A stretch of DNA of 64,000 nt, taken from an uncultured Gammaproteobacteria bacterium (GTDB lineage: Bacteria > Cyanobacteriota > Vampirovibrionia > LMEP-6097). The stretch covers positions 92,495 through 156,494 of the forward strand of contig CAYTKM010000002.1 of the NCBI GenBank assembly GCA_964438425.1, read 5' to 3'. Each line of letters begins with the position of its first letter. Position 1 is the first letter of the stretch. A program made the translations under genes and the position numbers. Shown in pieces: positions 26,406 through 58,781 of this stretch. The notes under the pieces were generated by a model. The model did not search any database and was not told the DNA's origin. It saw nothing but the letters and a program-made list of their open reading frames with translations.

Positions 26406-26458
26406 AAAAATAAAAAATGATATCAAGTACCCTTTGAACTCGATATCATTTTATTTTT
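26406..26458. terminator. hairpin, probable terminator between convergent genes
   Basis: AAAATGATATC...GATATCATTTT inverted repeat flanked by A and T runs. Confidence 0.55.
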
Positions 26459-26498
26459 AAAGCTTACCTAAAATGTTAGCTCAGTATGATAGATAAAC

Positions 26499-26753: not shown

Positions 26754-27141
26754 AATTTATTCCCCTCTTGTCGAATTTATATTATATATTTACTATTTCA
26801 GGATTATGATAGTATTAATAAATTGCAAAAATTTATCTAAATATGTTAGATAAACAAATGTTAACTTATCAATACAAATCCTCTTGTAATAAATATACAA
26901 CTTAATTATGTATTTTGTAAAGACTTTTTAGGGAATTTATGACAAATATATAAAGAAATTGAGAAAAATTTTTTGATAATAAATTTGAAAAGTTTTTACA
27001 AATCTTTTATCAGATGTAAATTTGTTGGAATTTGCAGGTAACTAGATACAGTGAGTATTTAGTTACACCTTGCTAAATTAACTGAAATTAAAAGCCTATA
27101 ACCTTTAACCTTTGTGTTTAAACTTAAATAGCTTAAATTTT

Positions 27142-31168: not shown

Positions 31169-34100
31169 CTAAGATCCGAACCCCTTAGCTGGTTTTTTCT
31201 TTTTCATATTAGATCTATTTAAAATACTATCGAAACTTTTAGAGGTTTTCTGCTTAGTTTTACCTGTACCTGAGACTTTACCATTTGTTTCCAGGTCTAC
31301 TAGATCATTAATCAAGCTTAAATTTTCCATAGCTACTCTAGAAAGAATTGTATTTGCCGTATCTCTGTAATCCATTTCTACTGAATTTAATTTAGGTGAA
31401 TCAAAAACAAAGCTAGTTGATTTATCTATATTGGTAAGACTGCGGTAATTTTTTAAGCTAGCTCGATATTTAGGCTCAACTAGGGCCCTATTTTTAATAG
31501 TTTTGATAAGATCATTAATTTCATAATGACTTATAGCATCAAAAAGCTCCATAAATTCAGCTACTGGATTGTCTGTCTCTTTAGAAGTTTGAGCTATTAC
31601 TTCCTTGTATTTGGCATGAAGCTTGGTTATATCTTCAACATTTGGAGCTGACGAACCATTAGCTAAAAGTAGCTTTTGAACAGTTAGTTTATACCAGCTG
31701 TCTAAAAAATTATTTTCAGAATATTTAGCTTGGGAATCAAAATCTGCGTATTTTTCTATGATTTGTTTAGGTTTCCACGCGCTAGAGGAAATGGAATTTT
31801 GCTGGATATCTGCAATCTCTTTTAGGACTTCAATATCACTACTGTAATTGCTGTCTGAAGATGATTCAAGACCTTTTGCTAGGCTTAAAACCATATTATG
31901 GTTATCAAGGTTTGCAGTTGTTACTTTACTAGTACCATGATCTATTTGAAATAAAAACTTTTGAAATATCAGTGAAATGGATTTTAATTCTAAAGCTTTA
32001 CTATCAAACTTATATTCTTTCAAATTATTATTAGTATCTAAATATTTAAACACTGTACCCGCTTCAAGCATCTTTTGGTACTCTGGTGCTCCCGCGGAAT
32101 GTTCTTTTAACTTAGACTGATTCATAAGCTTTAATGGTCTTATGCGAGTAAGTTTACGCTCAAATTCTTCTGTTAGTAAATTTTTTTTCCTAAGATTTTC
32201 TGTTTGCTGATCTATTAAGTCTAAAGTTAACTTAGTAAGTTTATTATATTTTAGATTATTGTAGAAAGAAGCTAAAGATATTAATGCCGAAACTTTTTTA
32301 ATCGGATCAGCCTGAGAGTGATAGTTTTCTTCAAGTAAATACTGATGGAAGTCATTGCTGCTATATTGATCTAAACTATCATCTGCGATGCTATCAGTTT
32401 TATATATATTAGAGATTAGTGAAGGTACAGTTAGTTTAATCAGATTTTCACGTAATGTCTGCATGCTACCATCATCATTTATAGGGCTTTCTTTTAGTGT
32501 TAGGTATTCTTTGATAGTCATTTTTAGAGCTGCCTGATAGTCATATTCTTCAGCAAGCAGATTTCCTAAACTCATTATTTCTTCTTTTGGATTAAAGTTT
32601 TGACGAGTGTAAATGGCTAGCTCAGATTCGACTTCTAAGTTAGTTTCTGGGATCTTTTTACTAACCATATTTTTATTACTACTCGCTGAAGCAGGGTTTA
32701 GGTTTGAAGCTTTAGAAAGATTGTTTGCGCTATCAGCTACAGTTATATCCTGAGTCAAAGGTCTATAGACTTTTTCTATTAGGTTGGCATCATCTTTAAA
32801 AGTGTCTTTTAGTCCTTCTAAAGCATAAACTAATTGACTTTGATATTCATCAATAGCCGTATCAGGTTGCTTGAAGACACTTTTAATAACATGGGCTAGT
32901 TCCAGATTAAACAAGTTATTAAATTTATCTCGTTTAGGTTCTACTATAGACTTTCGTAGATCATGCTGAATTTTAAAGAAGCGTGCTTCTTTCTCACTAA
33001 AAGATAAATCATTATTTTCAGCAACTTCATTAATTGTTAGGATTGCCTGTAAAATTCTCAAACCATCATAATTTTCCTGATTATTTTTAGCCGTAGAGCT
33101 TTGGAAACCAAGAACCTTTTTAACTGATGATGCCTGGTCTTGGTGAGCCTGCAAAAGACCATCGATAGTTTGTTTAATTTTACTTAGCTGTATATTTAAT
33201 AGTTCAGCTTCCTGTGGATTAGTGCCTTCGGCTTGCTTGGCTCTAAACTTTACTAGAGTACTAACAGTTTCTTTAAAAAGTTTGTAATGATTGATACTAA
33301 GATTTTTTAGCTTGATATTTTCACTACTTCTATCTAAAAACATATAAGGTGAACTATTTGCTAATTTTGAATTAGGCTGAGTGGAATCTTTTCGCCCTAA
33401 TTCTTCGCTTAATTTCTGAGCTCTTGCTATTAAAATGTTAGTTTCTTTAAATAACTTTTGGTTATTTGTTTTAAGTAAATCCACTAATTTATTGATATTT
33501 TCTTGATTAGACCCATGCTCCCTACTTTGCACATGTTCGATAAATTTTTCTGTAAGATTAAAACAGTCTTGTTTTATGATAATAAGTCTATCGTATCTAC
33601 TAAGGTTTTCTTCCTTGGAGCTGCTAGCTGGCATGGCTAGATGCTCGCTCATGATAAGCTTTTCAAGTTTAATAATAGCTTTAATTTTGTCGATTTTAAA
33701 GCCAGATCTAGCAAGAGTGTTTTCTAGTAAATACTGATAATATTTGCTGCTAGAATCATTAAAAAGCTCTTGAGAGCTAATATTTCTCTGATTACCGTCA
33801 TTTAAGTCTGATAATAAAAGTTCTATCTGTCTAGAACAATACTTACTAAATAGATCTAAGCGAGTAGACTGTATATTTTCCTTTATGTTTTTAAAAATAT
33901 CAACTTCATTATTTGATGTAGGTAAGCCATAAGCATCGTTAAAAGCCTGGTTAATACTCGTAATATCAGTTTTATAAGCTGCCTGAGTTTTACTTATATT
34001 TAAGTCATCGCTAATAGTTATTTTGCGTTCAGGGTCAACCGCTTCATTTTCATTTAAAACTTCACCAGTAGTTAAAATATTTTCTGAATTATCAGACTCT

Positions 34101-36979
34101 TGTGTAGCCTTTAGCTTATTTATAGTCTCAAGTTGACTTGAGTTTTCTAGCGTGGCACTATCAACCTCGGAAAAGTATTCTTTTTCATCGCCTGTATTAT
34201 TGAGTAAGTAAGGTTCGATATGGTCGCGATAAATAATACCATTGTCTGCTAATTCAAGTCGCATATTGTTATGAAATTCGACTTCTAAAGTGCTATTTAA
34301 GGTTTCATATAGTTCTGGCTCTAGATTTAAAGCTACTTCAGAGATTTTATTTATGCCAGCTTGAAACACTTTTAATCTGTCGCTACCAGTATGTGGACTC
34401 ATTTTATAACTTAGATCAAAAAAGGCATTAGTCATTAGCTTAATATAGCTAAGCGCACTTTGGGCTTGGTTAAAATTTTTAGTTTCTTTAGCTTGCTTAG
34501 CGTTAAGAGCAGCCTGCTTAATATTTTGGCTGACTTTTAAGAGTTTTGCTTGGTAGCTCTCGTTTTTAAGCTGACCTATCAAGCGACTAATCGATAATTT
34601 ATCTGTTAGAGGTAGCTTTACTAGATTTACACCATCTGCTTCAAGGTAAGTCAGTTTGTATTTTGGTCGCTGATCTTCAGGGTGAACCTCACTTAAAGCT
34701 GTATTTTGCTTTTCGATGCACTCTTGTACGTTAGCTAAAGCGCGCGCGCTATATTTAGATTCGAAAATAGTATCTTTAATCAGTTTTTTTGTTTTAGGAT
34801 CTGTTTTAAGTAAGGTAATATCTGCGCGCATAGCAGGTGGTTTATCTTCAGCAGGGTTGCCTGGAATGATGCACATCTGGGATTGAACGTTATGTGGGGT
34901 CTCAGGGTTTAAAGCTGAAGTTAAGGCTAGGGTTAGGGTTTCTGCTGCGTAGCCTTTAGCAAAGGTTACTTCACTGGCAACTTTATCTACTTCCTTAGCG
35001 CGCGCTTTGGTAGACTCTGGGCTTAAAGTAGATGCTTTAGATTTAAGTGGATTTTCTAATGGATTTGCTGATTTTGCTAAAGTGCTAGGTCTTAAAACGG
35101 TGCCCATCAAGTTAGCTACGTGTTTATTATTAAAAATTTTATCTGAGACACTTGATATTTTATTTTTAATCTTTGTTCGAGCTATTAAATCCAATGATTT
35201 AGGCAAGATGTTACTAGCTTTTTGTGACTTTTGGTAACTAATTGCTGGTCTGCTACTACCTACCCTTTGCTGCTCGCCATAAAATGTATCATCAGGAAAT
35301 GATAAGCCAGCTTTTTTGAAGGTCTCTTTTAAAGTATTAACTAAGCGCTGATAAGCTTTTGAGTTTAAAGATTTACCTTTAGGTAGGGTCTTTTTTAAAG
35401 TACTTTGAACTAAAAAGTATTCTTTTGTATGTTGGTGAAAATTAAGAATGTAGCTGATTGCCTTTAAGTTAGTTAAAGTATCTTTTTGTAGTCGATATTT
35501 ATCTATTAACTGCTTGGTGCCGTCCTGATCGCCAATATTTTTTAAACGAAGGTAATCATATTTAAACAAGCTTGCCATAAACTTGCCTTCAGTTCTATTA
35601 GTAAAATTTTCGGTTTTTAAACTGGCAGCTACTTGCAATTCACGTTCATAAAAAGCAGTTTTTAAGGCTTTTAAAGCACTCTGGTAAGCTGAGCCTGTAA
35701 GCTTGCTTTCATCATGACTGTATATTTCAAGCTCACCTGCTACCTTTTTAACTGTAACCGAGTCTAGAACTTGTTCTTGAGGATTATAGAATCTGAGATT
35801 AAAACTATTAGTACCCGAATTTTTAATACTTAAATCGAGGTAACGCTCGAAATCTAGTAATTTATTTTGGGGGTCGTCAGCTAGCTCCTCGATCATCCTT
35901 TGCAAGTCAAGATTATAAGAACTTAAATCTTGCTTAGAATATGAATTCTCAATTAAAACACTTCTACTGGCTTGAGACTTATTGATTTCAAGAGCACTTT
36001 TGTTTAGGTTTTCTGCTGTTTGTTTAGTTAGCGTGCCGATCAATTTTTTAATTTCGATCAGGTGTGCTTTTAGCCAATTGACTGATCTATCAGTCCCAAC
36101 AGCAGACAGGGCTTTATTAAATTCTGGTTCACTTTTAAAATTATAGTTAGTATTTAACTGAGTTTTAGGATGTTTTAGATAGTAAGCATAGATATTTTTT
36201 AAAGCTGGCACTAGATCTTGGAATTCTTTTTCTTGCGGGCTACTATCGGCAAGTTCTAGCTTTTGAAGAGCTTTAGTTAGCACCTGACGGTCTGTTTTAG
36301 TGTCACCATAAGTTTTACTAGCGAGATTAGTGCCAGACTTAAGTTTTTTAGCCGCTAAGATTTCACTTTCATCATTAAGCCTTAGTTCTTCTTTTATTGT
36401 AGGTACTAAAGGTGAAAAATAGCTGGGTAGTTTTTGTAAGCTGTTGCTGCCTGCTTGAATTTGATGATAGCTACCACTAGCTCTGTTTAATTTTAAAATA
36501 GTATTATCAATAAAATTTATAATGGATCTACTATCGTTGTTTTCTATGCTGTCAGTTAGTTTGACCAGAAAATTATCTTTTAACTTTAAATCTTTAGCTT
36601 GCGTGATGCCGCTGCGATAGTTATTTTCAAGACTTAAGTTCTCCATAGCAGCAAAAGACAGGATGAATTGTAAACGTGTATATTCATCATTATGTTCATT
36701 CCCGCGATTAGGGTAAACAGGCTTTTGAGCTAAAGTACTAGTAATATCTTTAATAGTTTTATCACTGCCAAGTGAGATTAGCTGACTTTTAAAGTCTTTT
36801 AGGATATTTATAATCTCGTCACTACCACTGAAACGATAAAAGCTAGCTATATTCTTTTGATTACTGTAATTAGTGCCAGTTTGCTGCTTTTTTTTCAGGG
36901 TTAAGTGCGGCTTTATCTGTTGATAGCCATGATAAGTGCTTTGAGCTGGATTATCCAAAGTAGTACTAGCTGTGCTCAT
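31169..36979 (-). CDS. giant hypothetical protein with possible central PD-(D/E)XK nuclease-like motif
   Basis: 1936-aa ORF containing KGYAAETL...MRADITL...IFESKY; C-terminal KKKKPAKGFGS. Confidence 0.75.
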   Translation of the reverse strand: MSTASTTLDNPAQSTYHGYQQIKPHLTLKKKQQTGTNYSNQKNIASFYRFSGSDEIINILKDFKSQLISLGSDKTIKDITSTLAQKPVYPNRGNEHNDEYTRLQFILSFAAMENLSLENNYRSGITQAKDLKLKDNFLVKLTDSIENNDSRSIINFIDNTILKLNRASGSYHQIQAGSNSLQKLPSYFSPLVPTIKEELRLNDESEILAAKKLKSGTNLASKTYGDTKTDRQVLTKALQKLELADSSPQEKEFQDLVPALKNIYAYYLKHPKTQLNTNYNFKSEPEFNKALSAVGTDRSVNWLKAHLIEIKKLIGTLTKQTAENLNKSALEINKSQASRSVLIENSYSKQDLSSYNLDLQRMIEELADDPQNKLLDFERYLDLSIKNSGTNSFNLRFYNPQEQVLDSVTVKKVAGELEIYSHDESKLTGSAYQSALKALKTAFYERELQVAASLKTENFTNRTEGKFMASLFKYDYLRLKNIGDQDGTKQLIDKYRLQKDTLTNLKAISYILNFHQHTKEYFLVQSTLKKTLPKGKSLNSKAYQRLVNTLKETFKKAGLSFPDDTFYGEQQRVGSSRPAISYQKSQKASNILPKSLDLIARTKIKNKISSVSDKIFNNKHVANLMGTVLRPSTLAKSANPLENPLKSKASTLSPESTKARAKEVDKVASEVTFAKGYAAETLTLALTSALNPETPHNVQSQMCIIPGNPAEDKPPAMRADITLLKTDPKTKKLIKDTIFESKYSARALANVQECIEKQNTALSEVHPEDQRPKYKLTYLEADGVNLVKLPLTDKLSISRLIGQLKNESYQAKLLKVSQNIKQAALNAKQAKETKNFNQAQSALSYIKLMTNAFFDLSYKMSPHTGSDRLKVFQAGINKISEVALNLEPELYETLNSTLEVEFHNNMRLELADNGIIYRDHIEPYLLNNTGDEKEYFSEVDSATLENSSQLETINKLKATQESDNSENILTTGEVLNENEAVDPERKITISDDLNISKTQAAYKTDITSINQAFNDAYGLPTSNNEVDIFKNIKENIQSTRLDLFSKYCSRQIELLLSDLNDGNQRNISSQELFNDSSSKYYQYLLENTLARSGFKIDKIKAIIKLEKLIMSEHLAMPASSSKEENLSRYDRLIIIKQDCFNLTEKFIEHVQSREHGSNQENINKLVDLLKTNNQKLFKETNILIARAQKLSEELGRKDSTQPNSKLANSSPYMFLDRSSENIKLKNLSINHYKLFKETVSTLVKFRAKQAEGTNPQEAELLNIQLSKIKQTIDGLLQAHQDQASSVKKVLGFQSSTAKNNQENYDGLRILQAILTINEVAENNDLSFSEKEARFFKIQHDLRKSIVEPKRDKFNNLFNLELAHVIKSVFKQPDTAIDEYQSQLVYALEGLKDTFKDDANLIEKVYRPLTQDITVADSANNLSKASNLNPASASSNKNMVSKKIPETNLEVESELAIYTRQNFNPKEEIMSLGNLLAEEYDYQAALKMTIKEYLTLKESPINDDGSMQTLRENLIKLTVPSLISNIYKTDSIADDSLDQYSSNDFHQYLLEENYHSQADPIKKVSALISLASFYNNLKYNKLTKLTLDLIDQQTENLRKKNLLTEEFERKLTRIRPLKLMNQSKLKEHSAGAPEYQKMLEAGTVFKYLDTNNNLKEYKFDSKALELKSISLIFQKFLFQIDHGTSKVTTANLDNHNMVLSLAKGLESSSDSNYSSDIEVLKEIADIQQNSISSSAWKPKQIIEKYADFDSQAKYSENNFLDSWYKLTVQKLLLANGSSAPNVEDITKLHAKYKEVIAQTSKETDNPVAEFMELFDAISHYEINDLIKTIKNRALVEPKYRASLKNYRSLTNIDKSTSFVFDSPKLNSVEMDYRDTANTILSRVAMENLSLINDLVDLETNGKVSGTGKTKQKTSKSFDSILNRSNMKKKKPAKGFGS

Positions 36980-43876: not shown

Positions 43877-45669
43877 TTAAAAGTCACTTAAATTATCAAG
43901 AGTTTTAACCAAATTAATATAGTGACCTGCTGTTAATTTATTTTTAAATCTTTTATTCTGCGTGCAAGCCTGCTTTAAAAGATTTTCCCAGTTATCAGGG
44001 TTGGATAAGGGATCATATTCAGGGTCTATAGCCTGCTTTAAGTTTACCTGTGCGTGACTTAAATTCAGTGCAACGTTATTGAAATCGTAATCTTCTAATG
44101 GGGCAACTCTTTCAGTGTTTTTTAGATAGGTAAGTAAAGGAGTATCACCTAAACTATTTTTTATAAATAGCTGTTTTTTTAGATCATCGTTTTGCAAAAA
44201 CATAAATTCAAACAAATGGCTCATATTAGTTGATAGATTGAGCTTCTTTTTACTGCATTTAGCCATTATATATAAAAATTTATGTACTAAAGTGTTATCT
44301 GTGCTAAGTTTTCTTTGTTTAAACAGAGCGCCGCTAATATCTCGTGATAGTTTATCTGCTAAACGCGTGGCGCGCGAGTCACCATAAGTAATATCAGTGT
44401 GATTTGAAGTGCTACTAGTGTCATACATTAGCTGATGATTAAAGTTGTTAAGTTGACCAGAGCGATCTAAATTTTTAATAATCTCATTTAATACGTGCTT
44501 ATCTTGCTGACTATCGTAGCTCGCTATAAAAACTTCCATTAAAATGTCTACCGGGGTAAAACCTGCTTGGTTTTTATGATTTAAGTCGACTAAATCTTCT
44601 TTAGCTAGTTGAGCTATAAAGTTTTTAGTGTTTTCTACACTTTTTTCACTTAGTGATAATTTTGTAGAGTTTCTGGAATCTTCGCTTCATCAATTAAAAT
44701 TTGCAGAGCTGGCAGAGTTTCTGTTGGATCATAGTCTGGGTTATTTTTGTGAATGCTTAGGTATAAAAGTTTAAGGAATTGCTCGTCTTTATCTTTAGTT
44801 TTGCAGGCGCTGTTATACTCTTCTAGATAGTTTCGAGCTTGCTCTAAATCTTCTAAATGCTTGCTATTTCGAATAGGTAGAATATAATCTAAATCTTCAT
44901 TTAAATCTTCTATTATCTGCTTGAAGTTGCTGGCTGGCTGTAAGTTTATTTTACTTACAAGCTTTTGTAGGTTTTTTCCTGATTCACTAGATACTTTTCT
45001 TTTAATAATAATATCTATTAAATCAGGTTTTCTATCTAAAATCATTCGACAGGCACCCCAATTTTTATTTAAAGCGGCTACTGTAACTAATTCTGGTCTA
45101 ATTAAAGCTGGCTTCATTTCAAGTAATCTTAGTAAGCTAAGGTTATCTTTTTCATGAGTGAATTTATAAGCAGAAGCTGTTAAAAACTTCTCTTCAGATA
45201 TTCTTCTACCTACTGGTTTATAATCAGCTAAGGTTTTGTGATTTTCAGGGCTTACTATATTAGCTAAATCTGCTGCTTTTAACGTGTTACTCGCTTTTAG
45301 GTAGATGTCCTCTTTAAGTTCAGGTAAAAAAGTATAGAATTTAGTGCCAGTGCGCGGCTCTTCTACATAATGGACATAGTTTTGAATTAGCTTCGGGCTC
45401 TTAATTACTGCAGCTTTTTGTTGATTTAACTTATTTTCAAGTTCTTTAAATTTATTATGGAAATTGTTGATAAATTGTAAGCTGTTTTTAGTTAAATTCT
45501 TGACTGAATCTTGGTTAAATTTTTTAGCCACTGCGGCGGCGACTTTTCTATCATTTAAAGTGGATTTACCTGCTTTAAGACGCACTTTTTTAGGGGTATT
45601 TAGTGCTGACAATCTATTTTGTTTTAAGTTATAAAATCTCAAATCATTTATAGTAAGTTTTTCTGACAT
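43877..45669 (-). pseudogene. probable single degenerate ankyrin-like repeat gene split by a frameshift (ORFs 44650..45669 and 43877..44686 frame)
   Basis: The downstream frame stays open upstream of its ATG to 44686, overlaps the upstream ORF, and encodes DLVDLNHKNQAGFTPVDIL. Other ankyrin-like segments: IKNSLGDTPLL and LVTVAALNKNWGACRMILDRKPDL. Confidence 0.55.
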
Positions 45670-45847
45670 GACTTTAAAGTGTATAGCGCCTATTCTATCA
45701 AAATAATAACATTATCATGGCGCTTATTTTAAACTTAAGTGACCTAAAAGCAAAATTAACAATTTTTTTATCATTATAAGTAAAATTAATAATTGATATT
45801 AGTTGCCTTAACTATTCTTTAAGAAGCATAACTTATATCATTTATAT

Positions 45848-46198
45848 ATGTTACACACAAAAGAAGAAACAATCCTAAATGGGTTATTGAATGCGTCTAG
45901 TGAAAGACAGCAGCTACTTGCTAACAATTTAAGTGGTGCGCGCGTTGAAGGTTATGTTGGACGTGATCTGGATTTTAGTACAGTGATGGTAGATTTAAAC
46001 CACTCTAATGGCGTGGATAAAAGTAAAGAAAGTATGCTTAATCGTGCGACTTTCGAGTACGCTGAAGGTCCTATTAGCACTGAACAGGAAATGGCTAAAA
46101 TGTATAAGAATCATGTGGCTTATATATTATTAACTCGTATTAATGGTCATATTTATCAGCACATGGAAGAAGCTACGCAATCAGGGAGAGCAGCATAG
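45848..46198 (+). CDS. flgB: flagellar basal-body rod protein FlgB (divergent)
   Basis: L..GLLNASSERQQLLANNLSGA...GYVGRDLDF, EQEMAKM..N...Y; abuts flgC. Confidence 0.85.
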   Translation: MLHTKEETILNGLLNASSERQQLLANNLSGARVEGYVGRDLDFSTVMVDLNHSNGVDKSKESMLNRATFEYAEGPISTEQEMAKMYKNHVAYILLTRINGHIYQHMEEATQSGRAA

Positions 46199-46666
46199 AT
46201 GGGAACTTTATTTGATATATTGGATACGGCTAGTAATAGCTTGGCTACAGAAAGACAGGTTATGGCATATGCTGCCGATAACGTATCTAATATGTATACG
46301 CCTGGTTATAAGGCTAAAACAGCAGTCGTTGGAGCTAAAGGACGTCAACCTAGTTTCGATGAAATGGTGACAAGTTTAACAAGTGGACGTGGTCCTGGAG
46401 TAGGCTCAATGATCCTTGAAGAGCATCCAGGGATGGGCTCGATGGTAAGTCAGGTAGCTACTGATTATAGTAAAGGTTCAATGCTATATTTACCTAAGCA
46501 CCCTTTAGCTAATGGTGAAGGCTACGTAGAATCTTCAAATGTAGATGCGCCTAAAGAGTCTATTAAAATGCTTAAGGCAGTAGGTTCATATAAAACTATT
46601 TTATCTATAGTTGAAATGGTTAAAGCATCATCTAAAGAAGCTTTAAATATGACTAAAAACGCTTAG
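46199..46666 (+). CDS. flgC: flagellar basal-body rod protein FlgC
   Basis: LFDILDTASNSL..ER..M...ADNVSN, Y.PKHPLANGEGYV..SNVD. Confidence 0.92.
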   Translation: MGTLFDILDTASNSLATERQVMAYAADNVSNMYTPGYKAKTAVVGAKGRQPSFDEMVTSLTSGRGPGVGSMILEEHPGMGSMVSQVATDYSKGSMLYLPKHPLANGEGYVESSNVDAPKESIKMLKAVGSYKTILSIVEMVKASSKEALNMTKNA

Positions 46667-46731
46667 TTTTAACTAATTAACATTCATTTTATAATATCGA
46701 TAGGGATCTCATTTATTTGAGATCCTTTTTT
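46578..46731. repeat. left copy of 154-bp direct repeat (flgC 3' end plus terminator)
   Basis: Matches 48242..48395 with 2 mismatches; offset 1664 bp. Confidence 0.95.
46703..46731. terminator. terminator hairpin between flgC and the ATPase gene
   Basis: GGATCTCA-loop-TGAGATCC followed by TTTTTT. Confidence 0.8.
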
Positions 46732-46735
46732 CATT

Positions 46736-48016
46736 TTATTGCCATAAGTTAGCTATAGGTATAGCCCATAAATTGTCACCGAAGGATAATGTATGCTCGC
46801 CAGTGTATAAAACTACACCGATAAAAGTTTTATCTCGTGCCATAATATTCTTTTTAAACCAAATTAAATGTTTAAACATACTTTTATCAACATCTGAACC
46901 TGCTTTAACTTCTATACCAAGTACTTCTTCCTCTTCACTTTCAATAATAAAATCAATTTCTCTTTTTTCGCGATCACGATAATGAAATATTTCATAACGC
47001 TCAGCTTGGGCTTCTAGATCAGCCGCTAACTGATTGTAGACAAAAGTTTCAACTAATTTACCATTTAAGCTGCCATCTAGGCGCACTTTTTCAAAGCGCC
47101 AGTTTAATATGGCTGTCATCATGCCAGTATCTGAAAAAAATAATTTATCTTGTTTACCAACTCTATCATAATCTGTTTTATACCAAGGCTTGACTTTATC
47201 AACTATATATAATGCTTCTAAAGCATTAATATAGCTTTCAACTGTCGGGCGAGTCACTGACAACTTTTGACAAATACCCGAGATATCCATATACTTTGAA
47301 GACCAGGCTGCTAGCACTTTAACTAGATTGAACATAGAATCCTTTCTTCTGATGTTGGTGATATCTAATAGATCTTTAGAAAGCAGTGCATCAAGGTAGT
47401 CTTGGTGCCAAGAGCGCCTATCTTTAATTTCAGGCATTAATCTAGCCTCGGGGTAACCACCTAAGAATGCATATTTTAAGTAAGAATCTTTGGTTTCAAC
47501 TTGATGAACTTGTTTATTCGTATCGCTAGTATGCTTTTGTTCTGTGTTATTAGTTTGAAGATCTTTTCTAAAAGCTCTTTTTAAAAAAGTAGGCGCACTA
47601 TTTTTCACTTCGCCTATGCTTAAGGGTCTTAAGCGGATTTTTTTAACTCTACCAGCTAAAGATTCAGAGACTGTCGGTAAGGCTTGTATATTAGCTGAAC
47701 CTGTCAGTAAGAATCTGCCAGCTTGCTGGTTTTCGTCAACATTTTGTTTGATAGTTTGTAGTAGTTTGGGAGCTCGTTGAATTTCATCTATAATCATTAG
47801 CTCACTGCCATGACTAACAAAACTTTTAGGGTCGCTTTGAGCTGCATTTAATAGAGTTAAATCATCTAAAGTTCTATAAATGGTATTGTTGCTGGCGAGC
47901 ATTTTAGCTAAAGTGGTTTTGCCACATTGTCTTGCCCCAGTAAGTAATAGCACTCTTCTTTGATTTAGAGAATTGAGTAAAATAGATTCTTGCCAGCGTT
48001 TAAAATTTTGTATCAT
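46736..48016 (-). CDS. AAA_14 ATPase with winged helix and DUF4143 / PD-(D/E)XK-like C-terminus
   Basis: Walker A GARQCGKTT, Walker B IIDEIQ, LTGS, ESLAGR, GGYPE, HTH LSVTRPTVESYINALE, G.LVETFV, EIDFII...IEVKAG. Confidence 0.92.
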   Translation of the reverse strand: MIQNFKRWQESILLNSLNQRRVLLLTGARQCGKTTLAKMLASNNTIYRTLDDLTLLNAAQSDPKSFVSHGSELMIIDEIQRAPKLLQTIKQNVDENQQAGRFLLTGSANIQALPTVSESLAGRVKKIRLRPLSIGEVKNSAPTFLKRAFRKDLQTNNTEQKHTSDTNKQVHQVETKDSYLKYAFLGGYPEARLMPEIKDRRSWHQDYLDALLSKDLLDITNIRRKDSMFNLVKVLAAWSSKYMDISGICQKLSVTRPTVESYINALEALYIVDKVKPWYKTDYDRVGKQDKLFFSDTGMMTAILNWRFEKVRLDGSLNGKLVETFVYNQLAADLEAQAERYEIFHYRDREKREIDFIIESEEEEVLGIEVKAGSDVDKSMFKHLIWFKKNIMARDKTFIGVVLYTGEHTLSFGDNLWAIPIANLWQ

Positions 48017-48024
48017 TATAAAAC

Positions 48025-48146
48025 TATAAATAAAGTAGTCGTGATTTTTAAAACAGAAACCCCGCGATTTTTAAAGTATAGCATCCGCGAAAGTATAAAT
48101 AAAGTAGTCGCGATTTTTAAAGCAGAAACCCCGCGATTTTTAAAGT
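48025..48146. repeat. 23-bp-period CG(C/T)GA(TTTTTAAA) array upstream of the ATPase gene
   Basis: Core starts at 48040, 48063, 48086, 48109 and 48132. Higher-order 53-bp duplication at 48025-48077 and 48094-48146. Confidence 0.9.
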
Positions 48147-48241
48147 CGGGGAGTTATGTATGAAAAGATCTTTTAAACTAATTTAAAATGAACTTTTTAA
48201 ATAATATAGAGTGTAAAGTTAATATAAAAATGTATATCAAC

Positions 48242-48395
48242 CAGTAGGTTCATATAAAACTATTTTATCTATAGTTGAAATGGTTAAAGCATCATCTAAA
48301 GAAGCTTTAAATATGACTAAAAACGCTTAGTTTTAACTAATTAAAATTTATTTTATAATATCGATAGGGATCTCATTTATTTGAGATCCTTTTTT
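48242..48395. repeat. right copy of 154-bp direct repeat (orphan flgC 3' fragment plus terminator)
   Basis: Duplicates the last 89 bp of flgC and its GGATCTCA/TGAGATCC hairpin. Confidence 0.95.
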
Positions 48396-48402
48396 ATTTT
48401 AT

Positions 48403-49860
48403 TTATGCGGCTTGCGCAGCTAACATACCAGTACCATTAGTAGTATCAGGATAAAAAGCACCTTGCTGCCTTAATTGCATTATTTTTTGTGCTGAAGGAC
48501 TAGGGTTAGCTGAAAGCTTTTCAAGCATACTTGGCGCAGGATCTACACCATGATCTTTATTAAACTGCGCTTGTCCTTTAGTATCAAGTTCGATAAATAA
48601 TTTAGCCATATCTAAATAGACAGCACTTTGACGTGGGTCCTCAGGGTTTTTGCCGACTGCGTTTTGAACGAACTGATCTATATTATCTATCGGTGCAGGC
48701 TTATGTTGGAAGCCCGCCTGATGACCTGATACACCTAGGCGTTTACCATTATTAAAGATTGGTTTAATAGTGTCATCAATTAAAATAGTTGAGGTTGTAA
48801 GTTTCTTGTCACCAGTCTGCGGATCTATACTTTCAGATGGAGGCAATAAATAGTCAATCCATTTAGATGGTTTAGGTTTAGTAGTGTAAGTATAACCTTC
48901 AGTCATAAATTGCTTATCATTATAGTTTTTAAATTTTTCAGGATTAGTAGTCTTTAAATGTTGAATAATTTTAGCGTTACGTTTTTTATCTGAGCCGCGA
49001 TGTTTTGCTGCATCTAAACCAGCTTTAATACGTCCCATAAGCTTAAGGTTATTGGGAGAGTCTTTAATAGTTTTCTCTTCAGGTGTGCCTAAATGTTGTC
49101 TACCTATCTCCGAGGCGGTAGACATCTGTCCCATCTGTCTAATTAATGGGTCAGGTGAATTAGGTGAAAAGGCATTATTTATTTTAACGATACTTTTGTT
49201 ATCAGGGTTGCGACTCACTGGAATAAACTGCATTTTATGTTTGGTAAGAATGGTTTTAAACTTACCAGTTTTTTCATCTGGAACCTGCAAAACTCCACGC
49301 TGAAGATCTTGCAAAAAAGTTATCATCGGTAGATTTATCGGTACTGGTCTAACACTACCGTCTTGATCGACAGTTCTAATCCAGCTCGGTGGTACGCCTT
49401 TAGCAAGCATCTGCTCGGTGCTCATATGTTCTTCATTTTTATAGTTAATTACACCATCAAGATCGCAGCCAAAGTAGATTATCGGCTTAGCCTTCATTTC
49501 TTCTACGCTTGGAATCTGTGCAGGAATAGTTTTAGGTTGCTCTGAGCCTTTACTGAAAGGATTTAACTTACTTAAAAAGCTAGGAGCTTTATAATCAGGA
49601 TTATCCATCGGCTCATATGGTACTACGCGAGTTACCTGATCGCCGCCAGTCTGATTTAAACCAGCTGGTAGGCTATCGGGGACATTTATCTGTTCAGGTG
49701 CTGGCACGGTAGTAGATAAATTTTCTATATTAGCTCTTGAGTTACCTGAAGTAGGTGTTCTAGCAGCTGTGTTATTTAAATTTTTAGCTCTAGGAGGGGG
49801 TGCAGCCTGGGTAGCTTGCGAGGCTGAAGTTCTATTAAATATTGGAAGTTTGATTGCCAT
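48403..49860 (-). CDS. hypothetical protein with HAD-like motifs and disordered N-terminus
   Basis: IYFGCDLDGVIN (motif I), FIPVSRN (motif II), TKPKP (motif III Lys candidate), TILIDDT (motif IV). Confidence 0.65.
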   Translation of the reverse strand: MAIKLPIFNRTSASQATQAAPPPRAKNLNNTAARTPTSGNSRANIENLSTTVPAPEQINVPDSLPAGLNQTGGDQVTRVVPYEPMDNPDYKAPSFLSKLNPFSKGSEQPKTIPAQIPSVEEMKAKPIIYFGCDLDGVINYKNEEHMSTEQMLAKGVPPSWIRTVDQDGSVRPVPINLPMITFLQDLQRGVLQVPDEKTGKFKTILTKHKMQFIPVSRNPDNKSIVKINNAFSPNSPDPLIRQMGQMSTASEIGRQHLGTPEEKTIKDSPNNLKLMGRIKAGLDAAKHRGSDKKRNAKIIQHLKTTNPEKFKNYNDKQFMTEGYTYTTKPKPSKWIDYLLPPSESIDPQTGDKKLTTSTILIDDTIKPIFNNGKRLGVSGHQAGFQHKPAPIDNIDQFVQNAVGKNPEDPRQSAVYLDMAKLFIELDTKGQAQFNKDHGVDPAPSMLEKLSANPSPSAQKIMQLRQQGAFYPDTTNGTGMLAAQAA

Positions 49861-50003
49861 TAAAGAAAGATTAGCCTTAGTTAAATATTAACTTATTTAC
49901 TAGTTTATCTCTCATTTTAACTAATTAGTTGTCTATCTGTCCAGTTATATGTATATACTTACTTTAAATTTATTTAAGATTTAGCGTTTAAGACTGTCAA
50001 AGA

Positions 50004-51536
50004 TTATTCGACTTTTAATAGATAATCTCTATTTATTTCTCTAGTATTAACATCTTGCACGTGAACTGGAATTTTAACGCTATCTAAACTGATTTCTGGA
50101 AAGACGTGACCAAACTCTTCAAATGAAGCATAATTTACGCGAACTTTTTTTACTTTTTCCTTTTTACCAAACTCTATAACATTAGGTTGGAATTCAACTA
50201 ACTCAGGATAATCTGTTGAGAGCTCGAAACTACTAGCTCCTTTACCTATTTTTCGAATCTTAAGAATACTTGTGCGATCTCTAAAAGTGTATAAAAAGGT
50301 AGGCTTTTTAAGTGCTCGACCTCTGAGTTTTACACTTTCACGCTCATCAAGATCAAAATTTAATTTTAAAACTTTCCCGCCAGCTTCAACATCAAAAGTG
50401 TTTATAGTTTTATTCACTTCACTAAAATCATCTAAATCTTTCACTTCACTATTTTCGAAATGTAAGAAACCCGAATTGTAGTCATTTTCATCGGCTCCCT
50501 CATGAATACCGACTGATGAGCCACCAACAAATTTTTCATATATTGGTTCGACTTTAAGAGCGTATGTGCCGGGCTTTAAATTCTCTAAGCTAAAATTACC
50601 TTGATCTTCACCATCATAGTCAACCGCCGAAGTTACAAAATCTTTATAGGGATTCTCATTCTCTAAATTAAAGGCGATCACATTTAAGCCTTTAACACCT
50701 TTATTATGGTAAGATAAACTGCCTCTAATGCAACCTAGGTTGCTAGTAAGCTCATCTTTTGGATAAGCCATATTTATAGCTGCGATATCATCATGTTTGA
50801 GCTCTGTACTCGAACTAATACCTACTGGAAACATAACTGGCACAGCTGATAAGTCCATTTCAGAAATTTTACCTTCTTTAAATTTGGTAATTTCTGCTCC
50901 CTGACTATGATCAAGACCTACCATATGAGCAAATTCATGTAAAATAGTAGATTCTAAATGAGCTTTTAGCTCAGCGCGATCCTTTATATCAGGTCTATTA
51001 TCAAGCTTATAGAGGTAACCATTGAAAAGTGCCTGAGATTCTGCGATACTAACTAACTTTTTACCTTGAAAATTAAAAAAACTGGTAGTTGCGAAACCTA
51101 AAATATCTTCGCGCGCACCATAACCAACTAAAGCATCAACTATATTACCGTTATCAAAGATAATAGGGCTGTAATTTAAAGGTTCGAAAGGTTCAAGATA
51201 GTTATGAAAATTTAAGACGTTAACTGATTCATTAATAGGTCCAAGTGGACTTTCTTCAAAGCTTATATTCGATACACTTTCCCATTTATTTAGCATCTTT
51301 TTAACGCTAGTGCTCGCTTCAGCATAACTAAAATCACCTAGATCGTTTTTTTCCAAACGGTATATTAGTCTAGCTGTGTTTTTACTATCTTTCGGATAGG
51401 TTGGAAAGCGTACTTTACCTGCTGGGCAGTTTTCAATTCTTTTATTCTCTTCACAAACGCCCAAAATACCAGCTGCTTTAGTTGACTGCATGGTAAAAAG
51501 TACTAATGATGTAAAAAATAACAGGTATTTGGTCAT
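50004..51536 (-). CDS. secreted metzincin (matrixin/M10-like) zinc metalloprotease
   Basis: Signal peptide, HEFAHMVGLDHS zinc motif, Met-turn VMFP, L.HDDIAAI..YP, followed by a carboxypeptidase-regulatory-like beta domain. Confidence 0.88.
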   Translation of the reverse strand: MTKYLLFFTSLVLFTMQSTKAAGILGVCEENKRIENCPAGKVRFPTYPKDSKNTARLIYRLEKNDLGDFSYAEASTSVKKMLNKWESVSNISFEESPLGPINESVNVLNFHNYLEPFEPLNYSPIIFDNGNIVDALVGYGAREDILGFATTSFFNFQGKKLVSIAESQALFNGYLYKLDNRPDIKDRAELKAHLESTILHEFAHMVGLDHSQGAEITKFKEGKISEMDLSAVPVMFPVGISSSTELKHDDIAAINMAYPKDELTSNLGCIRGSLSYHNKGVKGLNVIAFNLENENPYKDFVTSAVDYDGEDQGNFSLENLKPGTYALKVEPIYEKFVGGSSVGIHEGADENDYNSGFLHFENSEVKDLDDFSEVNKTINTFDVEAGGKVLKLNFDLDERESVKLRGRALKKPTFLYTFRDRTSILKIRKIGKGASSFELSTDYPELVEFQPNVIEFGKKEKVKKVRVNYASFEEFGHVFPEISLDSVKIPVHVQDVNTREINRDYLLKVE

Positions 51537-51860
51537 GGAAGTAAAAAATTTACACCACCGTATGGTTAAAGAACATTTAATTTATTAATCATTTAGGATG
51601 ATTATATTGAGTATTAAACAAAGTTAATTTTAAAACTGTTTAAATGAGAGGCTTTTAGGTTACCTAGGAGATAATTCAAGGGTGGCTAGGTTAATTTTAA
51701 GATTGATAAATTACTTCTTAGTTACGGAATTTAGCTTTAGAAATTTTAAATATAAACTTTAAAAGTGATTTAAGTGATTGAATCTTATTTTTATTTTTAG
51801 GTCATGCTTTATTAGATATGCCAGAATATCTAATAAAATAATTAGTGGAATAAATCACAG

Positions 51861-52667
51861 ATGGCAGAAAATAAAATACGTTTAGATCAGTTCCTGTATG
51901 AGTATGCTTATTTTGAAAGCCGCCAGCAGGCACAAACTGCAATTATGACTGGTGGCGTTAAGGTCGCTGGCAAGCCTGCAACTAAAGCTGGCACGCAGCT
52001 AAACCTTAAAAAAACTTTAGTGGAACTTGAAAAATCGGCTGACTATGTGCAGATAGTTTCAACTGGAGTTAGTAAATACGTAAGTAGAGGAGCTTATAAG
52101 CTCGAAAAAGCTCATAAAGAGTTTAATTTAGATTTAAATGACTCAATAGTCTTTGACATAGGCGCTTCTACAGGTGGTTTCACTGATTTTAGTCTGCAAC
52201 ATGGTGCCAAGTGGGTAATAGCTCTCGATGTAGGTACTAATCAACTGCACGCTAAGTTGAAGCAAAACTCTCAGGTGATCAGTTTAGAGAAGACTAATAT
52301 TAAAGACTTTAGTTATACAGATTTAAAGGAGCTCGCTAAAGAAAATGCTTTTAATGTAAATGATATAGGCTTTGTGGTAGCAGATCTATCGTTTATTTCT
52401 ATTTTAAAGATAGTCACTAAGTTAAAAGAACTGTTTAGTGAAGCTGAGCCAGCATTTATATTTTTATTAAAACCACAGTTTGAAGGTACTAAAGAGTTAA
52501 TAAATAAATGTAAAGGCATAATTCGTGATGATAAGGTCAGATTAGGTATTAAAGAAGAAGTGCTTGCTAAACTAGCTAATGAATTTGAGATTTTAAGTTG
52601 CATGGAATCACCGATTAAGGGCGCTAAGGGAAATATCGAATATTTAGTGCATTTCAGATTTAAATAA
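51861..52667 (+). CDS. tlyA: TlyA family rRNA 2'-O-methyltransferase
   Basis: S4 domain RLD...ESR..A, YVSRGAYKL, DIGASTGGFTD, DVGTNQL, DLSFIS, KPQFE, SPIKGAKGNIEYL. Confidence 0.95.
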   Translation: MAENKIRLDQFLYEYAYFESRQQAQTAIMTGGVKVAGKPATKAGTQLNLKKTLVELEKSADYVQIVSTGVSKYVSRGAYKLEKAHKEFNLDLNDSIVFDIGASTGGFTDFSLQHGAKWVIALDVGTNQLHAKLKQNSQVISLEKTNIKDFSYTDLKELAKENAFNVNDIGFVVADLSFISILKIVTKLKELFSEAEPAFIFLLKPQFEGTKELINKCKGIIRDDKVRLGIKEEVLAKLANEFEILSCMESPIKGAKGNIEYLVHFRFK

Positions 52668-58166: not shown

Positions 58167-58781
58167 ATGTACGAACCTGAAGACTTTGATGAATATCAAG
58201 CAGGTATTGCTCCATCTGAGTATGAAATAGAACGAACCTTCAACAAAGAAGAGCCAATATTTGAAAATAAAGAACTTGATCGCTTTCATCGAGGTTCTTA
58301 TGACGCGGCTAGTTATAGCGTACTGACTATTGCAGCTTATCTATTACATTTAGCCTGGACGCAAGATAGTATTAGCCCTAATTTAAAAGAAGGACTGACG
58401 GCGATAAAAGTTGAGCAGCTACTTTACTTTATTCAACAAGAATACGCGAGGCGCTTTGATCGTGCTTTATTTAAAGATGCTATTTTTCGCACTAAATACG
58501 GACCTTTAATCATCGGGATTCGAGAAAAATATAAGCACTATGCTACCAGTCCGATACCGATTACTGAAGATGAGCTAGACATGCTTGAAGGTAATGTATT
58601 TGACCCAGCGATAATTTTTGTTATTGATAAAATTTGGGATAAATATAAAAACTTTACCAGTACTAAATTGCTAGAATTGCTCAGGAAGCAGGTGCCATGG
58701 GCTGATACCAAAGGTACTTATGAAAAGTATTCTTTCATAAGCTTGGATGAAATTAAACGAAGAAAGTGGTGGTATAGATGA
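58167..58781 (+). CDS. Panacea (DUF4065/SocA/GepA) domain protein with acidic N-terminal extension
   Basis: IAAYLL...LTAIKVEQLLYFIQ...LFKDAI....YGPLI...IDKIWDKY...T...L......PW. Confidence 0.8.
   Translation: MYEPEDFDEYQAGIAPSEYEIERTFNKEEPIFENKELDRFHRGSYDAASYSVLTIAAYLLHLAWTQDSISPNLKEGLTAIKVEQLLYFIQQEYARRFDRALFKDAIFRTKYGPLIIGIREKYKHYATSPIPITEDELDMLEGNVFDPAIIFVIDKIWDKYKNFTSTKLLELLRKQVPWADTKGTYEKYSFISLDEIKRRKWWYR

Follow-up and report, generated by a model that had tools for sequence, protein, structure and literature searches.

A gene for a PDC-S01-type ATPase-nuclease lies between two copies of a 163-bp segment taken from the end of flgC, in the chromosome of a flagellated Caenarcaniphilales (Melainabacteria) bacterium. 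Our preferred reading, held with moderate confidence, is that insertion-duplication by host recombination brought in this known type of candidate defense gene, the route being judged from its end product. About 1.5 kb of DNA would have entered the gap between the convergent flgC and a 485-aa ORF, carrying one complete PDC-S01-type gene together with 225 nt of upstream DNA that contains a duplicated promoter/operator array. The insertion would have copied a 163-bp target segment that starts 89 nt before the end of flgC and reaches the neighboring gene's stop codon. Below, the window denotes the whole 64-kb stretch of DNA analyzed (64,000 nucleotides).

The repeat pair and the genes it separates

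A base-by-base comparison established that positions 46578–46740 are a direct repeat of 48242–48403, the left copy being 163 nt long and the right one 162 nt. Over the first 103 nt the copies agree completely (46578–46680 and 48242–48344). Two substitutions follow (46681 C versus 48345 A; 46685 C versus 48349 T), after which the copies are again identical through 46731/48395. The left copy then has an additional C at 46732, and the last 8 nt (46733–46740 and 48396–48403) are the same in both. With two substitutions and a single-base indel in total, the overall identity is about 98%. An ungapped repeat search returned 46578–46736 versus 48242–48400 (159 nt, 97%) at a spacing of 1664. The first-pass annotation had described 154-bp direct repeats with two mismatches overall. 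The repeats are real and their first 103 nt are indeed identical, but they extend 8–9 nt further, and the single-base indel has to be added to the two substitutions.

Past the repeat ends, similarity drops to chance level both on the left (score 4, with shuffles averaging 4.8, sd 1.8) and on the right (score 6 versus 3.5, sd 1.8; matched in 241 of 2000 shuffles). A longer, degraded duplication outside these limits is ruled out, since the flanks resemble each other only by chance. Moreover, the window holds only two direct-repeat families of at least 35 nt, the flgC-end pair and a 69-bp tandem upstream of the ATPase gene, which excludes a chance origin of the pair.

The left flank is well defined. 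The gene flgB (45848–46198, plus strand, 116 aa), the first of the flgBC pair, matches NCBIfam TIGR01396 at E=1.6e-8, under the curated cut-off, and its position is syntenic with flgB in the related loci L001–L024. The intact flgC (46199–46666, plus strand, 155 aa) matches TIGR01395 at E=2.8e-18, also under the cut-off; homologs 66–71% identical to its product carry the source name FlgC, and its C-terminus can be aligned with those of 20 relatives. The stop codon of flgC (TAG) occupies 46664–46666, and therefore the last 89 nt of the gene are inside the repeat. The left copy (46578–46740, plus strand) accordingly comprises the flgC 3′-end, its stop codon, a spacer, a terminator hairpin, a T-run and ATTTTATT; it also includes the stop codon of the ATPase gene and part of its last sense codon. 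The right copy (48242–48403, plus strand) consists of an untranslated flgC 3′-fragment (48242–48330) and a second hairpin, and runs as far as the stop codon that closes the 485-aa gene.

Both hairpins were picked up by a terminator scan of the plus strand, each followed by a T-run. The left one (46702–46727) has 10 pairs and a loop of 6, with a folding energy of −15.9 kcal/mol (z=−3.8), while the right one (48366–48391), also with 10 pairs, reaches −18.2 kcal/mol (z=−4.1). It had been proposed that the duplication supplies a terminator to both minus-strand genes. This holds only in part: the hairpin is present, but the U-tract is absent on the minus strand, where the scan called no terminator-like site in 45600–50100.

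On the other side, the convergent 485-aa ORF (48403–49860, minus strand) belongs to no Pfam, NCBIfam or PADLOC family. It is a near-orphan with three matches among 1.84 billion representatives, one of them an identical 68-aa C-terminal piece. In the deeper clade flgC faces another gene, of which the 485-aa ORF is not the positional ortholog (hhalign probability 0.07%, no hmmsearch match), and tblastn of that gene's family and of a hydrolase-like flgC-facing family against the window found nothing. Between the repeat copies there is a single ORF of family rank, at 46736–48016 on the minus strand. The first-pass annotation had placed only the ATPase gene and its upstream array there, which agrees with our results once a 95-nt spacer is added. 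Its other proposal, that removing 1664 bp would restore flgC, terminator and convergent gene, is supported. Judging from sequence, the 485-aa ORF would face flgC directly if the insert were absent.

Might the arrangement be a product of assembly? It is improbable, in our estimation, that the chromosomal site is in fact empty and that the 1664-bp unit, existing as a circle or in some strains only, was threaded into the contig through the 103 identical bases. A chromosome and a circle sharing the repeat would give the same assembly graph as repeat–insert–repeat if reads spanned less than those 103 bases. Such a mixture would also be in line with the presence of the ATPase protein on three contigs and of FlgC on two, and the identical 68-aa piece, the sole high-identity match of the 485-aa ORF among the 1.84 billion representatives, points to a second public assembly with a break or a difference some 200 nt beyond the right-hand end of the repeat. 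However, the copies differ at three positions, with each variant tied to its own flank, and therefore both junctions are backed by distinct sequence. A 1.66-kb circle devoid of a replication gene, moreover, could not persist alone.

The ATPase-nuclease gene and its upstream array

The inserted gene (46736–48016, minus strand) encodes a full-length AAA_14/wHTH/DUF4143 ATPase-nuclease of 426 aa, as indicated by Pfam, PADLOC and alignment. Pfam AAA_14 (PF13173) matches residues 20–137 at E=1.6e-28 and DUF4143 (PF13635) residues 214–373 at E=1.7e-37, while the PADLOC model PDLC04790 (PDC-S01) spans residues 3–426 of 426 (E=3.1e-136, 452.5 bits). The N- and C-termini line up with those of 17 homologs, so that the protein is complete at both ends. 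In the alignment of these 18 sequences, Walker A (G27-x-R-Q-C-G-K33-T34), Walker B (D77-E78) and the putative nuclease motif D355..E369xK371 are all invariant. DUF4143 has been placed in the PD-(D/E)xK fold (PMC3424549).

No relative with a structure in PDB could be detected by sequence. An AF2 model of the protein (pLDDT 85.9, pTM 0.88) found its best structural matches in the archaeal AAA+ ATPases SSO1545 (2fna) and PAB2304 (2qen), STAND proteins of the NLR/Apaf-1 type and Orc1/Cdc6. These matches cover the ATPase–wHTH part, at E of about 1e-6, TM of 0.26–0.43 normalized to the query and sequence identity of 12–15%. Most likely, the protein works as an ATP-driven switch of the STAND/ORC type that combines a wHTH domain with a C-terminal PD-(D/E)xK nuclease effector, an architecture that would make its gene a candidate for anti-phage or anti-plasmid defense.

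By sequence, the protein belongs to the PADLOC candidate class PDC-S01. Its members, in which an ATPase is fused to a PD-(D/E)xK domain, are described as a defense candidate still to be validated, and the class is reported to be among the commonest such candidates in prokaryotes (PMC12988326). The earlier description of the family as patchy and of unclear function holds, with its filing as a defense candidate in the same source. The nearest homolog of the protein, found in a search of 5.8 billion proteins, is only 62–64% identical, and the 90% cluster of the ATPase contains one sequence. The window carries one copy of the gene. Homologs occur on 385 of 72,556 plasmid records. Carriage by phages was rejected, as only 8 of 50,697 phage records match, weakly and at no more than 28.5% identity. 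None of the four neighboring proteins scanned has a PADLOC match, which counts against our reading, and on this basis there is no defense island at the locus.

The age of the insertion is harder to read. The idea that it is recent is supported by the repeats, which are about 98% identical, but not by the composition of the gene, whose GC of 0.351 and GC3 of 0.260 are like those of the neighboring genes. The native-looking GC3 could reflect long residence, or else a donor of similar composition. Long residence, in turn, fits the 98% identity of the repeats badly, unless gene conversion keeps the copies alike.

Upstream of the ATPase gene, two tandem 69-bp units (48021–48077 and 48090–48146, minus strand) are 95% identical. 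Each contains two 13-nt TTTAAAAATCRCG boxes and one promoter-like −35/−10 pair. The boxes are at 48040–52, 48063–75, 48109–21 and 48132–44; the promoter-like sites, at 48121→48092 (TATACT) and 48052→48023 (TATAGT), are weak consensus matches (9 of 12 positions). At up to one mismatch the box matches the window five times against 0.55 expected, four times exactly in the array and once with one mismatch at 52912. There are no exact matches in the window outside the array and none in 36 loci. The array is likely the promoter/operator of the ATPase gene, which would probably be autoregulated through the four boxes. Beyond it, an AT-rich spacer of 95 nt (48147–48241) closes the insert on its outer side and meets flgC-internal sequence at 48241|48242. 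Rfam searches gave no sign of a structured RNA in either insert or repeat, with no match in 44000–52000 (E up to 1) or across the window (gathering score).

The flgC gap in related genomes and the question of mobility

The empty site that the first-pass annotation proposed to look for is common: flgC directly faces another gene in 18 of 21 related loci, the partner being either a hydrolase-like gene or a member of an unnamed 290–590-aa family. The sister clade of the window (L001, L005, L007, L008 and L009) shows this arrangement, and because flgC faces another gene there, the ATPase gene is, on this comparative sequence evidence, not ancestral at the gap. The right flank of the gap is unconserved among the related loci.

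In the three remaining loci (L002, L003 and L019, representing two lineages), a DUF4143 ATPase gene occupies the gap, with no duplication, and the interval from flgC to the neighboring gene holds no further element genes. An ancestral, repeat-free ATPase in relatives would speak against insertion at this site. Occupied, repeat-free gaps do exist, but their ATPases are non-orthologous, only 23–31% identical, and point to independent gains; according to a quick tree, on which the count rests, the four occupied genomes need three separate gains.

These loci bear on whether the insertion and the duplication were separate events. An older, plain insertion between the flgC terminator and the neighbor's stop codon, with the 163-bp segment copied across later by template switching or gene conversion, seems to us a poor prospect. 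L002 and L003 do show the duplication-free arrangement that it presupposes, and the native GC3 suggests a longer residence than the 98% repeat identity implies. The hairpin is intact in both copies, with all three differences outside the stem, and selection may favor a copy that insulates the 485-aa gene from the promoter array of the ATPase gene. Against this, the hairpin lacks a U-tract for minus-strand transcripts. No simple mechanism accounts for a dispersed 163-bp copy that lies 1.5 kb away and starts within a coding sequence, and the copied 89 nt of flgC are purposeless at the right-hand site, yet 100% identical.

Could the protein itself have mobilized its gene? The possibility that a DUF4143 protein cuts, in a homing-like manner, near the conserved flgC 3′-end or in terminator gaps, leaving the 163-bp duplication as a staggered-cut footprint, appears very slight. 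It draws on three non-orthologous DUF4143 genes that occupy the flgC gap in independent lineages, all in one orientation. Five of the eight DUF4143 copies in 410 kb are in convergent gaps, which make up 76 of 405 gene junctions; the gap inserts are gene-sized, about 1.24–1.5 kb; and the putative nuclease motif is intact. The recurrence at the flgC gap is nevertheless suggestive only (p=0.03 to 0.18). With the choice of control, Fisher tests for enrichment of DUF4143 genes ranged from p=0.0037 to p=0.18, and against convergent gaps only (2/20 versus 1/54, p=0.18) the enrichment was not significant. The L019 paralog, in addition, is located at a different site.

The other copies of the family tell against self-mobilization more directly. 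Direct repeats of at least 25 nt flank none of 13 other DUF4143 genes examined (0/7 in related genomes and 0/6 on plasmids), and therefore the duplication is not a family trait. Upstream tandem arrays are likewise missing from the 7 relative and 6 plasmid copies, save for a two-copy motif in L009. The insert has no conserved ends, no terminal inverted repeats and no near-identical second copy. Homing leaves its target without duplication. Set beside free-standing homing endonuclease genes, for which occupied and empty alleles with the same precise boundaries would be expected, the locus gives a mixed picture: its gene encodes a nuclease domain and stands alone, and relatives have empty sites, but the occupants are non-orthologous, the right flank is unconserved and there is a 163-bp duplication. 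The suggestion that the ATPase-nuclease is self-mobilizing is not supported.

We likewise give very little credence to the broader claim that PDC-S01/DUF4143 ATPase-nucleases are autonomous single-gene mobile elements, in which an AAA+ oligomer and a PD-(D/E)xK nuclease would target gene-end or terminator gaps, in this case the conserved flgC 3′-end with its three independent hits in Caenarcaniphilales, and cut the strands about 160 bp apart. Its corollary, that repair would fix the gene and leave behind a long duplication of the target, usually lost to decay, so that the window would hold the first fresh footprint, strikes us as just as improbable. A transposon or insertion sequence does not fit: the 44 window ORFs scanned include no transposase, the insert ends have no inverted repeats, the duplication is 163 bp long, and the element has a single copy in the window and a single sequence in its 90% cluster.

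Route of insertion and comparison with known systems

A Pfam scan of 44 window ORFs (9 + 35) revealed no integrase, transposase or recombinase domain, in agreement with the earlier proposal of an integrase-free single-gene insertion. This result also weighs on a further explanation. Elements integrated in gene 3′-ends are well known, such as e14 and phage 21 at icd and CIMEs at fda, and a prophage or integrative element, larger and site-specific, might have entered at the flgC 3′-end, brought a replacement flgC end and later lost all but its defense cargo. We regard this as unlikely, and it is to the same degree doubtful that the locus is what such a history would leave, a cis-mobilizable attL–ATPase–attR remnant without integrase. 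The repeats do combine a protein gene's 3′-end, here 89 nt of flgC, with downstream sequence, as attL/attR sites might, with the gene kept intact, and the 95-nt spacer, of unrecognized function, could be the other arm of the element at the far end of the insert. However, the insert contains the ATPase gene alone, and the 44 ORFs scanned across the 64-kb window include neither a tyrosine or serine recombinase nor a phage gene. The element would have to have been pared down by deletion to very nearly one gene, and the three related occupied loci show no repeats or further element genes.

Host recombination, our preferred reading, would need none of these enzymes. In the Campbell type of integration, donor DNA with a copy of the flgC end would integrate by a single crossover, yielding repeat–insert–repeat; an alternative route, homology-facilitated illegitimate recombination, in which one end is homologous and the other illegitimate, would produce the same structure. 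Either way, an integrase would be dispensable and the product of the ATPase gene itself need not take part. What is observed matches both routes, namely an insert between direct duplications equal to the homology segment, without a dedicated recombinase. The sharp repeat boundaries and the position of the ATPase stop codon within the shared repeat end also favor host recombination. A single crossover would call for a donor in which the ATPase gene was already joined to an flgC end, which counts against that route.

The locus preserves the junctions of one PDC-S01-type acquisition. The insert is the size of a gene, a recombinase is missing and 163 bp of the target are duplicated, and these junctions fit host recombination rather than a mobile-element enzyme. 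RecA-type recombination between the 163-bp repeats could delete the gene precisely, leaving the empty site and a 1664-bp circle. Owing to the flanking duplication, the gene could hence be present in some cells and absent in others. The three unrelated DUF4143 genes at the flgC gap of different Melainabacteria hint, against our reading, at a process with more specificity than host recombination at random would have, and offer a concrete, testable indication that this little-studied phylum has an insertion hot spot. Should that hot spot be due to chance and the duplication be a single occurrence, the locus records ordinary lateral gene acquisition.

How does the locus compare with known systems? 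It is like PDC-S01 (COG1373-type "ATP-binding protein") in domain order, full-length PDLC04790 match, P-loop and D..ExK residues, stand-alone position and patchy distribution. It differs from other copies of the class in its 163-bp target duplication, seen in 0/13 others, and in not being in a defense island. The modeled ATPase–wHTH fold resembles SSO1545, PAB2304, STAND NTPases (plant NLRs, Apaf-1/CED-4) and Orc1/Cdc6, which, going by the depositors' descriptions and to our knowledge, are not described with a DUF4143-type nuclease.

With e14 and phage 21 at icd and the integrase-less CIMEs, the locus shares repeats derived from the 3′-end of the target, an intact target gene and a displaced, untranslated gene-end fragment left on the far side. 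Unlike them, it has no integrase in 64 kb, consists of a single 1.5-kb gene and has no known cognate larger element.

A further parallel is with host recombination in transformable bacteria. Homology-facilitated illegitimate recombination is reported to add foreign genes beside a conserved anchor (PMC5361080), and transformation to be able to create duplications (PMC3784515). The literature found on such recombination contained no natural case of a single defense-candidate gene that adjoins a flagellar gene and is flanked by a 163-bp duplication; the accounts concern laboratory crosses or toxin–immunity arrays, unlike the natural locus described here. What the locus would have in common with insertion-duplication and homology-facilitated illegitimate recombination, as presented in those reports, is foreign DNA set beside a conserved anchor by host recombination alone (PMC5361080, PMC3240628).

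The insert and its flanking repeat

The first-pass annotation had reported a 154-bp target duplication next to flgC. The duplication is present and slightly longer, with a left copy of 163 nt (46578–46740) and a right copy at 48242–48403. The repeat search paired 46578–46736 with 48242–48400 (159 nt, 97% identity, spacing 1664). Checked base by base, the first 103 bases (46578–46680) are identical, and substitutions at 46681 and 46685 are followed by identity up to 46731. The left copy then has an extra C at 46732, after which eight more bases match (46733–46740 and 48396–48403). The copies differ at 3 of 163 positions, every one in the non-coding part of the repeat, and the untranslated flgC fragment of the right copy is identical to the left copy over 89 nt. 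Outside both repeat ends, similarity is no higher than in shuffled sequence. Apart from this pair and a 69-bp tandem within the insert, the window has no direct repeats of at least 35 nt.

Each repeat copy comprises the last 89 nt of flgC (stop codon TAG at 46664–46666 in the left copy), a spacer, a 10-pair hairpin and a T-run. It had been proposed that the duplication supplies a terminator to both minus-strand genes, the ATPase gene of the insert and the convergent gene to its right. The hairpin is called as a plus-strand terminator in both copies, but the minus strand around the repeats has no called terminator-like site, so the proposal is only half supported.

Between the copies lie the 426-aa ATPase ORF (46736–48016, minus strand), two tandem 69-bp units (48021–48077 and 48090–48146, 95% identical) and a 95-nt AT-rich spacer that abuts flgC-internal sequence at 48241/48242. 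The ORF is complete: 17 homologues begin and end at the same positions (N-terminus MIQNFKRWQ, C-terminus ..NLWQ). The shared ATTTTATT end of the repeat contains its last sense codon and stop; where this end recurs in the right copy, it meets the stop codon of the 485-aa gene. Thus, the foreign DNA amounts almost exactly to a single gene with 225 nt of its upstream sequence. The repeat search found no inverted repeats at the insert ends, and no RNA family matched the insert, the repeat or the rest of the window.

The box TTTAAAAATCRCG occurs twice in each 69-bp unit. Exact copies in the window number four, all within the array, and one single-mismatch site elsewhere (0.55 sites with at most one mismatch are expected by chance), and the box has 0 occurrences among 36 fetched loci. 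Each unit also holds one weak promoter-like −35/−10 pair, defined by consensus matches only. With the proximal −10 ending 7 nt ahead of the ATPase ATG, the transcript may have almost no leader. In one related locus (L009), a two-copy motif, TATGTAAAAGTG...GCATAATTAT, lies at ~16900–17000, upstream of an ATPase gene at 15565–16899. This ATPase is a distant family member; the motif hints that repeated operator-like upstream boxes may recur in the family.

The ATPase-nuclease and the question of self-mobility

The protein matches Pfam AAA_14 (1.6e-28) and DUF4143 (1.7e-37) and, across its full length, the PADLOC class PDC-S01 (PDLC04790, 3.1e-136). An excerpt of PMC12988326 describes PDC-S01 as a single-gene candidate in which an ATPase is fused to a PD-(D/E)xK domain. 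Walker A, Walker B and the nuclease motif D355...E369-x-K371 are invariant in the homologue alignment. No solved structure is related to the protein by sequence. Its AlphaFold2 model (pLDDT 85.9, pTM 0.88) resembles the archaeal AAA+ ATPases SSO1545 and PAB2304 and, likewise, plant NLR resistosomes, Apaf-1/CED-4 and Orc1/Cdc6. Judging by fold and motifs, it most likely acts as a nucleotide-driven STAND-like switch that would bind DNA through its wHTH and release the nuclease effector.

Homologues occur on 385 of 72,556 plasmid records (identity up to 39%) and on 8 of 50,697 phage records (up to 28.5%). The nearest among 5.8 billion proteins is 62–64% identical, and named matches at 56–59% identity come from Proteobacteria and Bdellovibrionota.

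The insert had also been described as integrase-free and possibly self-mobilising. The former description holds: Pfam revealed no integrase, transposase or other recombinase among the 44 window ORFs scanned. The latter is not supported. A search for long flanking duplications at other DUF4143 copies had been proposed; direct repeats of at least 25 nt flank none of the seven in relatives and none of six plasmid copies sampled from the best 15 matches listed (0/13 altogether). Moreover, the window holds a single copy of the ATPase gene, and its 90%-identity cluster consists of one sequence. These findings lend no support to a self-moving element marked by characteristic ends and duplications, and a self-mobilising nuclease is the least probable of the explanations we weighed. 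The insert could instead be the trimmed remnant of an integrase-bearing element targeting the flgC end; the repeat does contain that end, but with no recombinase among the scanned ORFs we regard this origin as unlikely.

Occupancy of the flgC gap in related genomes

An alignment of FlgC relatives yielded 30 loci from species-representative genomes, the best match being 71% identical to the window FlgC. The closest 24 full-length matches are Caenarcaniphilales/Melainabacteria MAGs, several under other labels. Several loci titled 'uncultured Gammaproteobacteria bacterium' (L012, L014–L017, L020, L023 and L025) share the fliM-fliL-nadD-proA-flgB-flgC synteny, and most cluster with the Melainabacteria loci in the tree (L016 and L020 sit on long branches, and their placement is poor). 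These titles look wrong.

In relatives, this upstream order is conserved, whereas the downstream side is variable. The gene adjoining flgC could be identified in 21 loci, and in 18 of these flgC directly faces a convergent resident gene. The resident is a hydrolase-like protein of 270–315 aa in the closer clade (L001, L005, L007, L008, L009); in 13 deeper-clade loci it belongs to an unnamed family, mostly 290–390 aa long (588 aa in one case). In the other three (L002, L003, L019), a DUF4143 ATPase gene is intercalated between flgC and the resident, convergent with flgC. Its stop lies 10–17 nt from the flgC terminator (L002, L003) or flgC stop codon (L019), and its start 50–77 nt from the neighbour's stop. 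Both AAA_14 and DUF4143 are present in all seven ATPases of related loci.

The three intercalated ATPases are 23–25% identical to that of the window and, on sequence comparison, are not its orthologues; L002 and L003 share 92% identity, L019 and L002 30%. A quick ML tree on 20 rows of FliL+ProA+FlgB+FlgC pairs L002 with L003, places the empty-site L001 as their outgroup and makes the window sister to the six closer loci. Occupancy requires three changes on this tree and the ATPases are not orthologous; thus, different members of one superfamily have entered the gap on at least three occasions. No duplication is seen at the occupied gaps of L002, L003 and L019. Relatives carrying the ATPase here ancestrally and without a repeat had been named as evidence against the insertion; L002, L003 and L019 do have a DUF4143 ATPase here and no repeat, but their genes are not orthologous to the one in the window. 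L002 and L003 do provide a precedent for a plain insertion at an earlier date, with local copying of the terminator segment afterwards, a course of events to which we give little credence.

To ask whether the gap is a hot spot, a profile search was set against a rough prediction of genes, which gave 431 genes and 405 junctions, 76 of them convergent. The search detected eight DUF4143 genes in 409,831 nt (window plus L001–L025), about one per 51 kb; five of them, including the second paralogue of L019, are in convergent gaps. The window was omitted from the enrichment test because it had prompted the search. The flgC gap is occupied in 3/21 loci against 4/383 other junctions (Fisher p=0.0037), or in 2/20 against 4/383 if L002 and L003 count as one event (p=0.031). 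Compared with convergent gaps only, the figures are 2/20 and 1/54 (p=0.18). Since the junctions are phylogenetically non-independent, an insertion hot spot is only suggested.

L019 has two paralogous DUF4143 ATPases (3466–4626, minus; 7011–8171, plus; 60% identical) in successive convergent gaps within less than 5 kb, both empty in related loci such as L012. At L015 14273–16688, a DUF4143 ATPase gene and a divergent 346-aa gene separate genes whose homologues adjoin in the sister L014, another lineage-specific insertion of the family. L003 carries a 153-nt direct repeat (12997–13149 and 13348–13500, 96%, spacing 351) inside or adjoining a 253-aa ORF (12802–13563). The proA–flgB spacing is ~100 nt in L003, L004, L005 and L009, ~0.7 kb in L002 and ~2.2 kb in L001, so the other side of flgBC is also a variable spot. 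In the window it holds two ORFs of 220 and 339 aa (43877–45669, minus) with no Pfam, NCBIfam or PADLOC family and no flanking repeat of at least 35 nt.

Elsewhere in the window, an MbnB/TglH/ChrH-family (4.6e-71) and DUF2063 gene pair (11799–13564), of a kind known from RiPP-type peptide modification clusters, adjoins a 1423-aa ORF without a Pfam family (7476–11747). Pfam assigns no family (E up to 1e-4) to a 1936-aa ORF (31169–36979, minus). Directly upstream of a fragment-sized TsaD-family ORF lies a gene (58167–58781) for a 204-aa protein that has a SocA/Panacea antitoxin-type domain (6.5e-12). A 1.1-kb segment of very low GC (26033–27141; 0.264 in 26001–27000) contains no ORF of at least 90 aa and no Rfam match.

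Origin of the duplication

The resident gene right of the insert (485 aa; 48403–49860, minus) is a near-orphan in database searches. A word-indexed search gave no match, and a full scan of 1.84 billion representatives gave three: an identical 68-aa protein (P0145) corresponding to its last 68 residues from an internal Met, a 29%-identical 452-aa protein and a repeat match. The ATPase sequence is recorded on three contigs and FlgC on two (longest 568,229 nt for both). Taken with the 68-aa match, these counts suggest a break or a difference in other public assemblies immediately right of the repeat; the extra ATPase contig may represent the insert assembled on its own. Even so, we consider it improbable that the whole arrangement is an assembly or population artefact.

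The three differences in 163 positions and the identical 89-nt flgC fragment argue for a young event or gene conversion. The GC (0.351) and GC3 (0.260) of the ATPase gene fall within the ranges of 13 neighbouring genes (0.32–0.39 and 0.24–0.32), so it did not arrive recently from a donor of different composition. A similar AT-rich genome, possibly that of a relative, was probably the source. If so, the three differences could reflect polymorphism between donor and recipient, lying right of a crossover inside the 103 identical bases.

The explanation we rank first, at roughly even chances, is host recombination. If a molecule with the repeat and the insert joined the chromosome by a single crossover, the repeat–insert–repeat structure would result. 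Alternatively, one end would recombine homologously in flgC and the other join illegitimately upstream of the homology end, with the same outcome. PMC5361080 and PMC3240628 describe such homology-facilitated illegitimate recombination as a route that adds foreign genes beside a conserved anchor, and duplications driven by transformation are described in part of PMC3784515. Neither route would need an integrase. The first-pass annotation is confirmed in its observation and partly supported in its interpretation, self-mobility being the part that lacks support.

Recombination between direct repeats can lead to RecA-type deletion of the intervening DNA. Whatever the insert's origin, two 163-bp direct repeats 1.5 kb apart are a substrate for it. 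Because this is established behaviour of direct repeats, deletion would be expected to restore the flgC–terminator–485-aa gene order exactly and release a 1664-bp circle.

The gene is unremarkable within its family, a known and very common group of candidate defence genes. Among the features of the locus, only the repeated use of the flgC gap might indicate something new. A target duplication this long is not usual in the family, but known host recombination can account for it.
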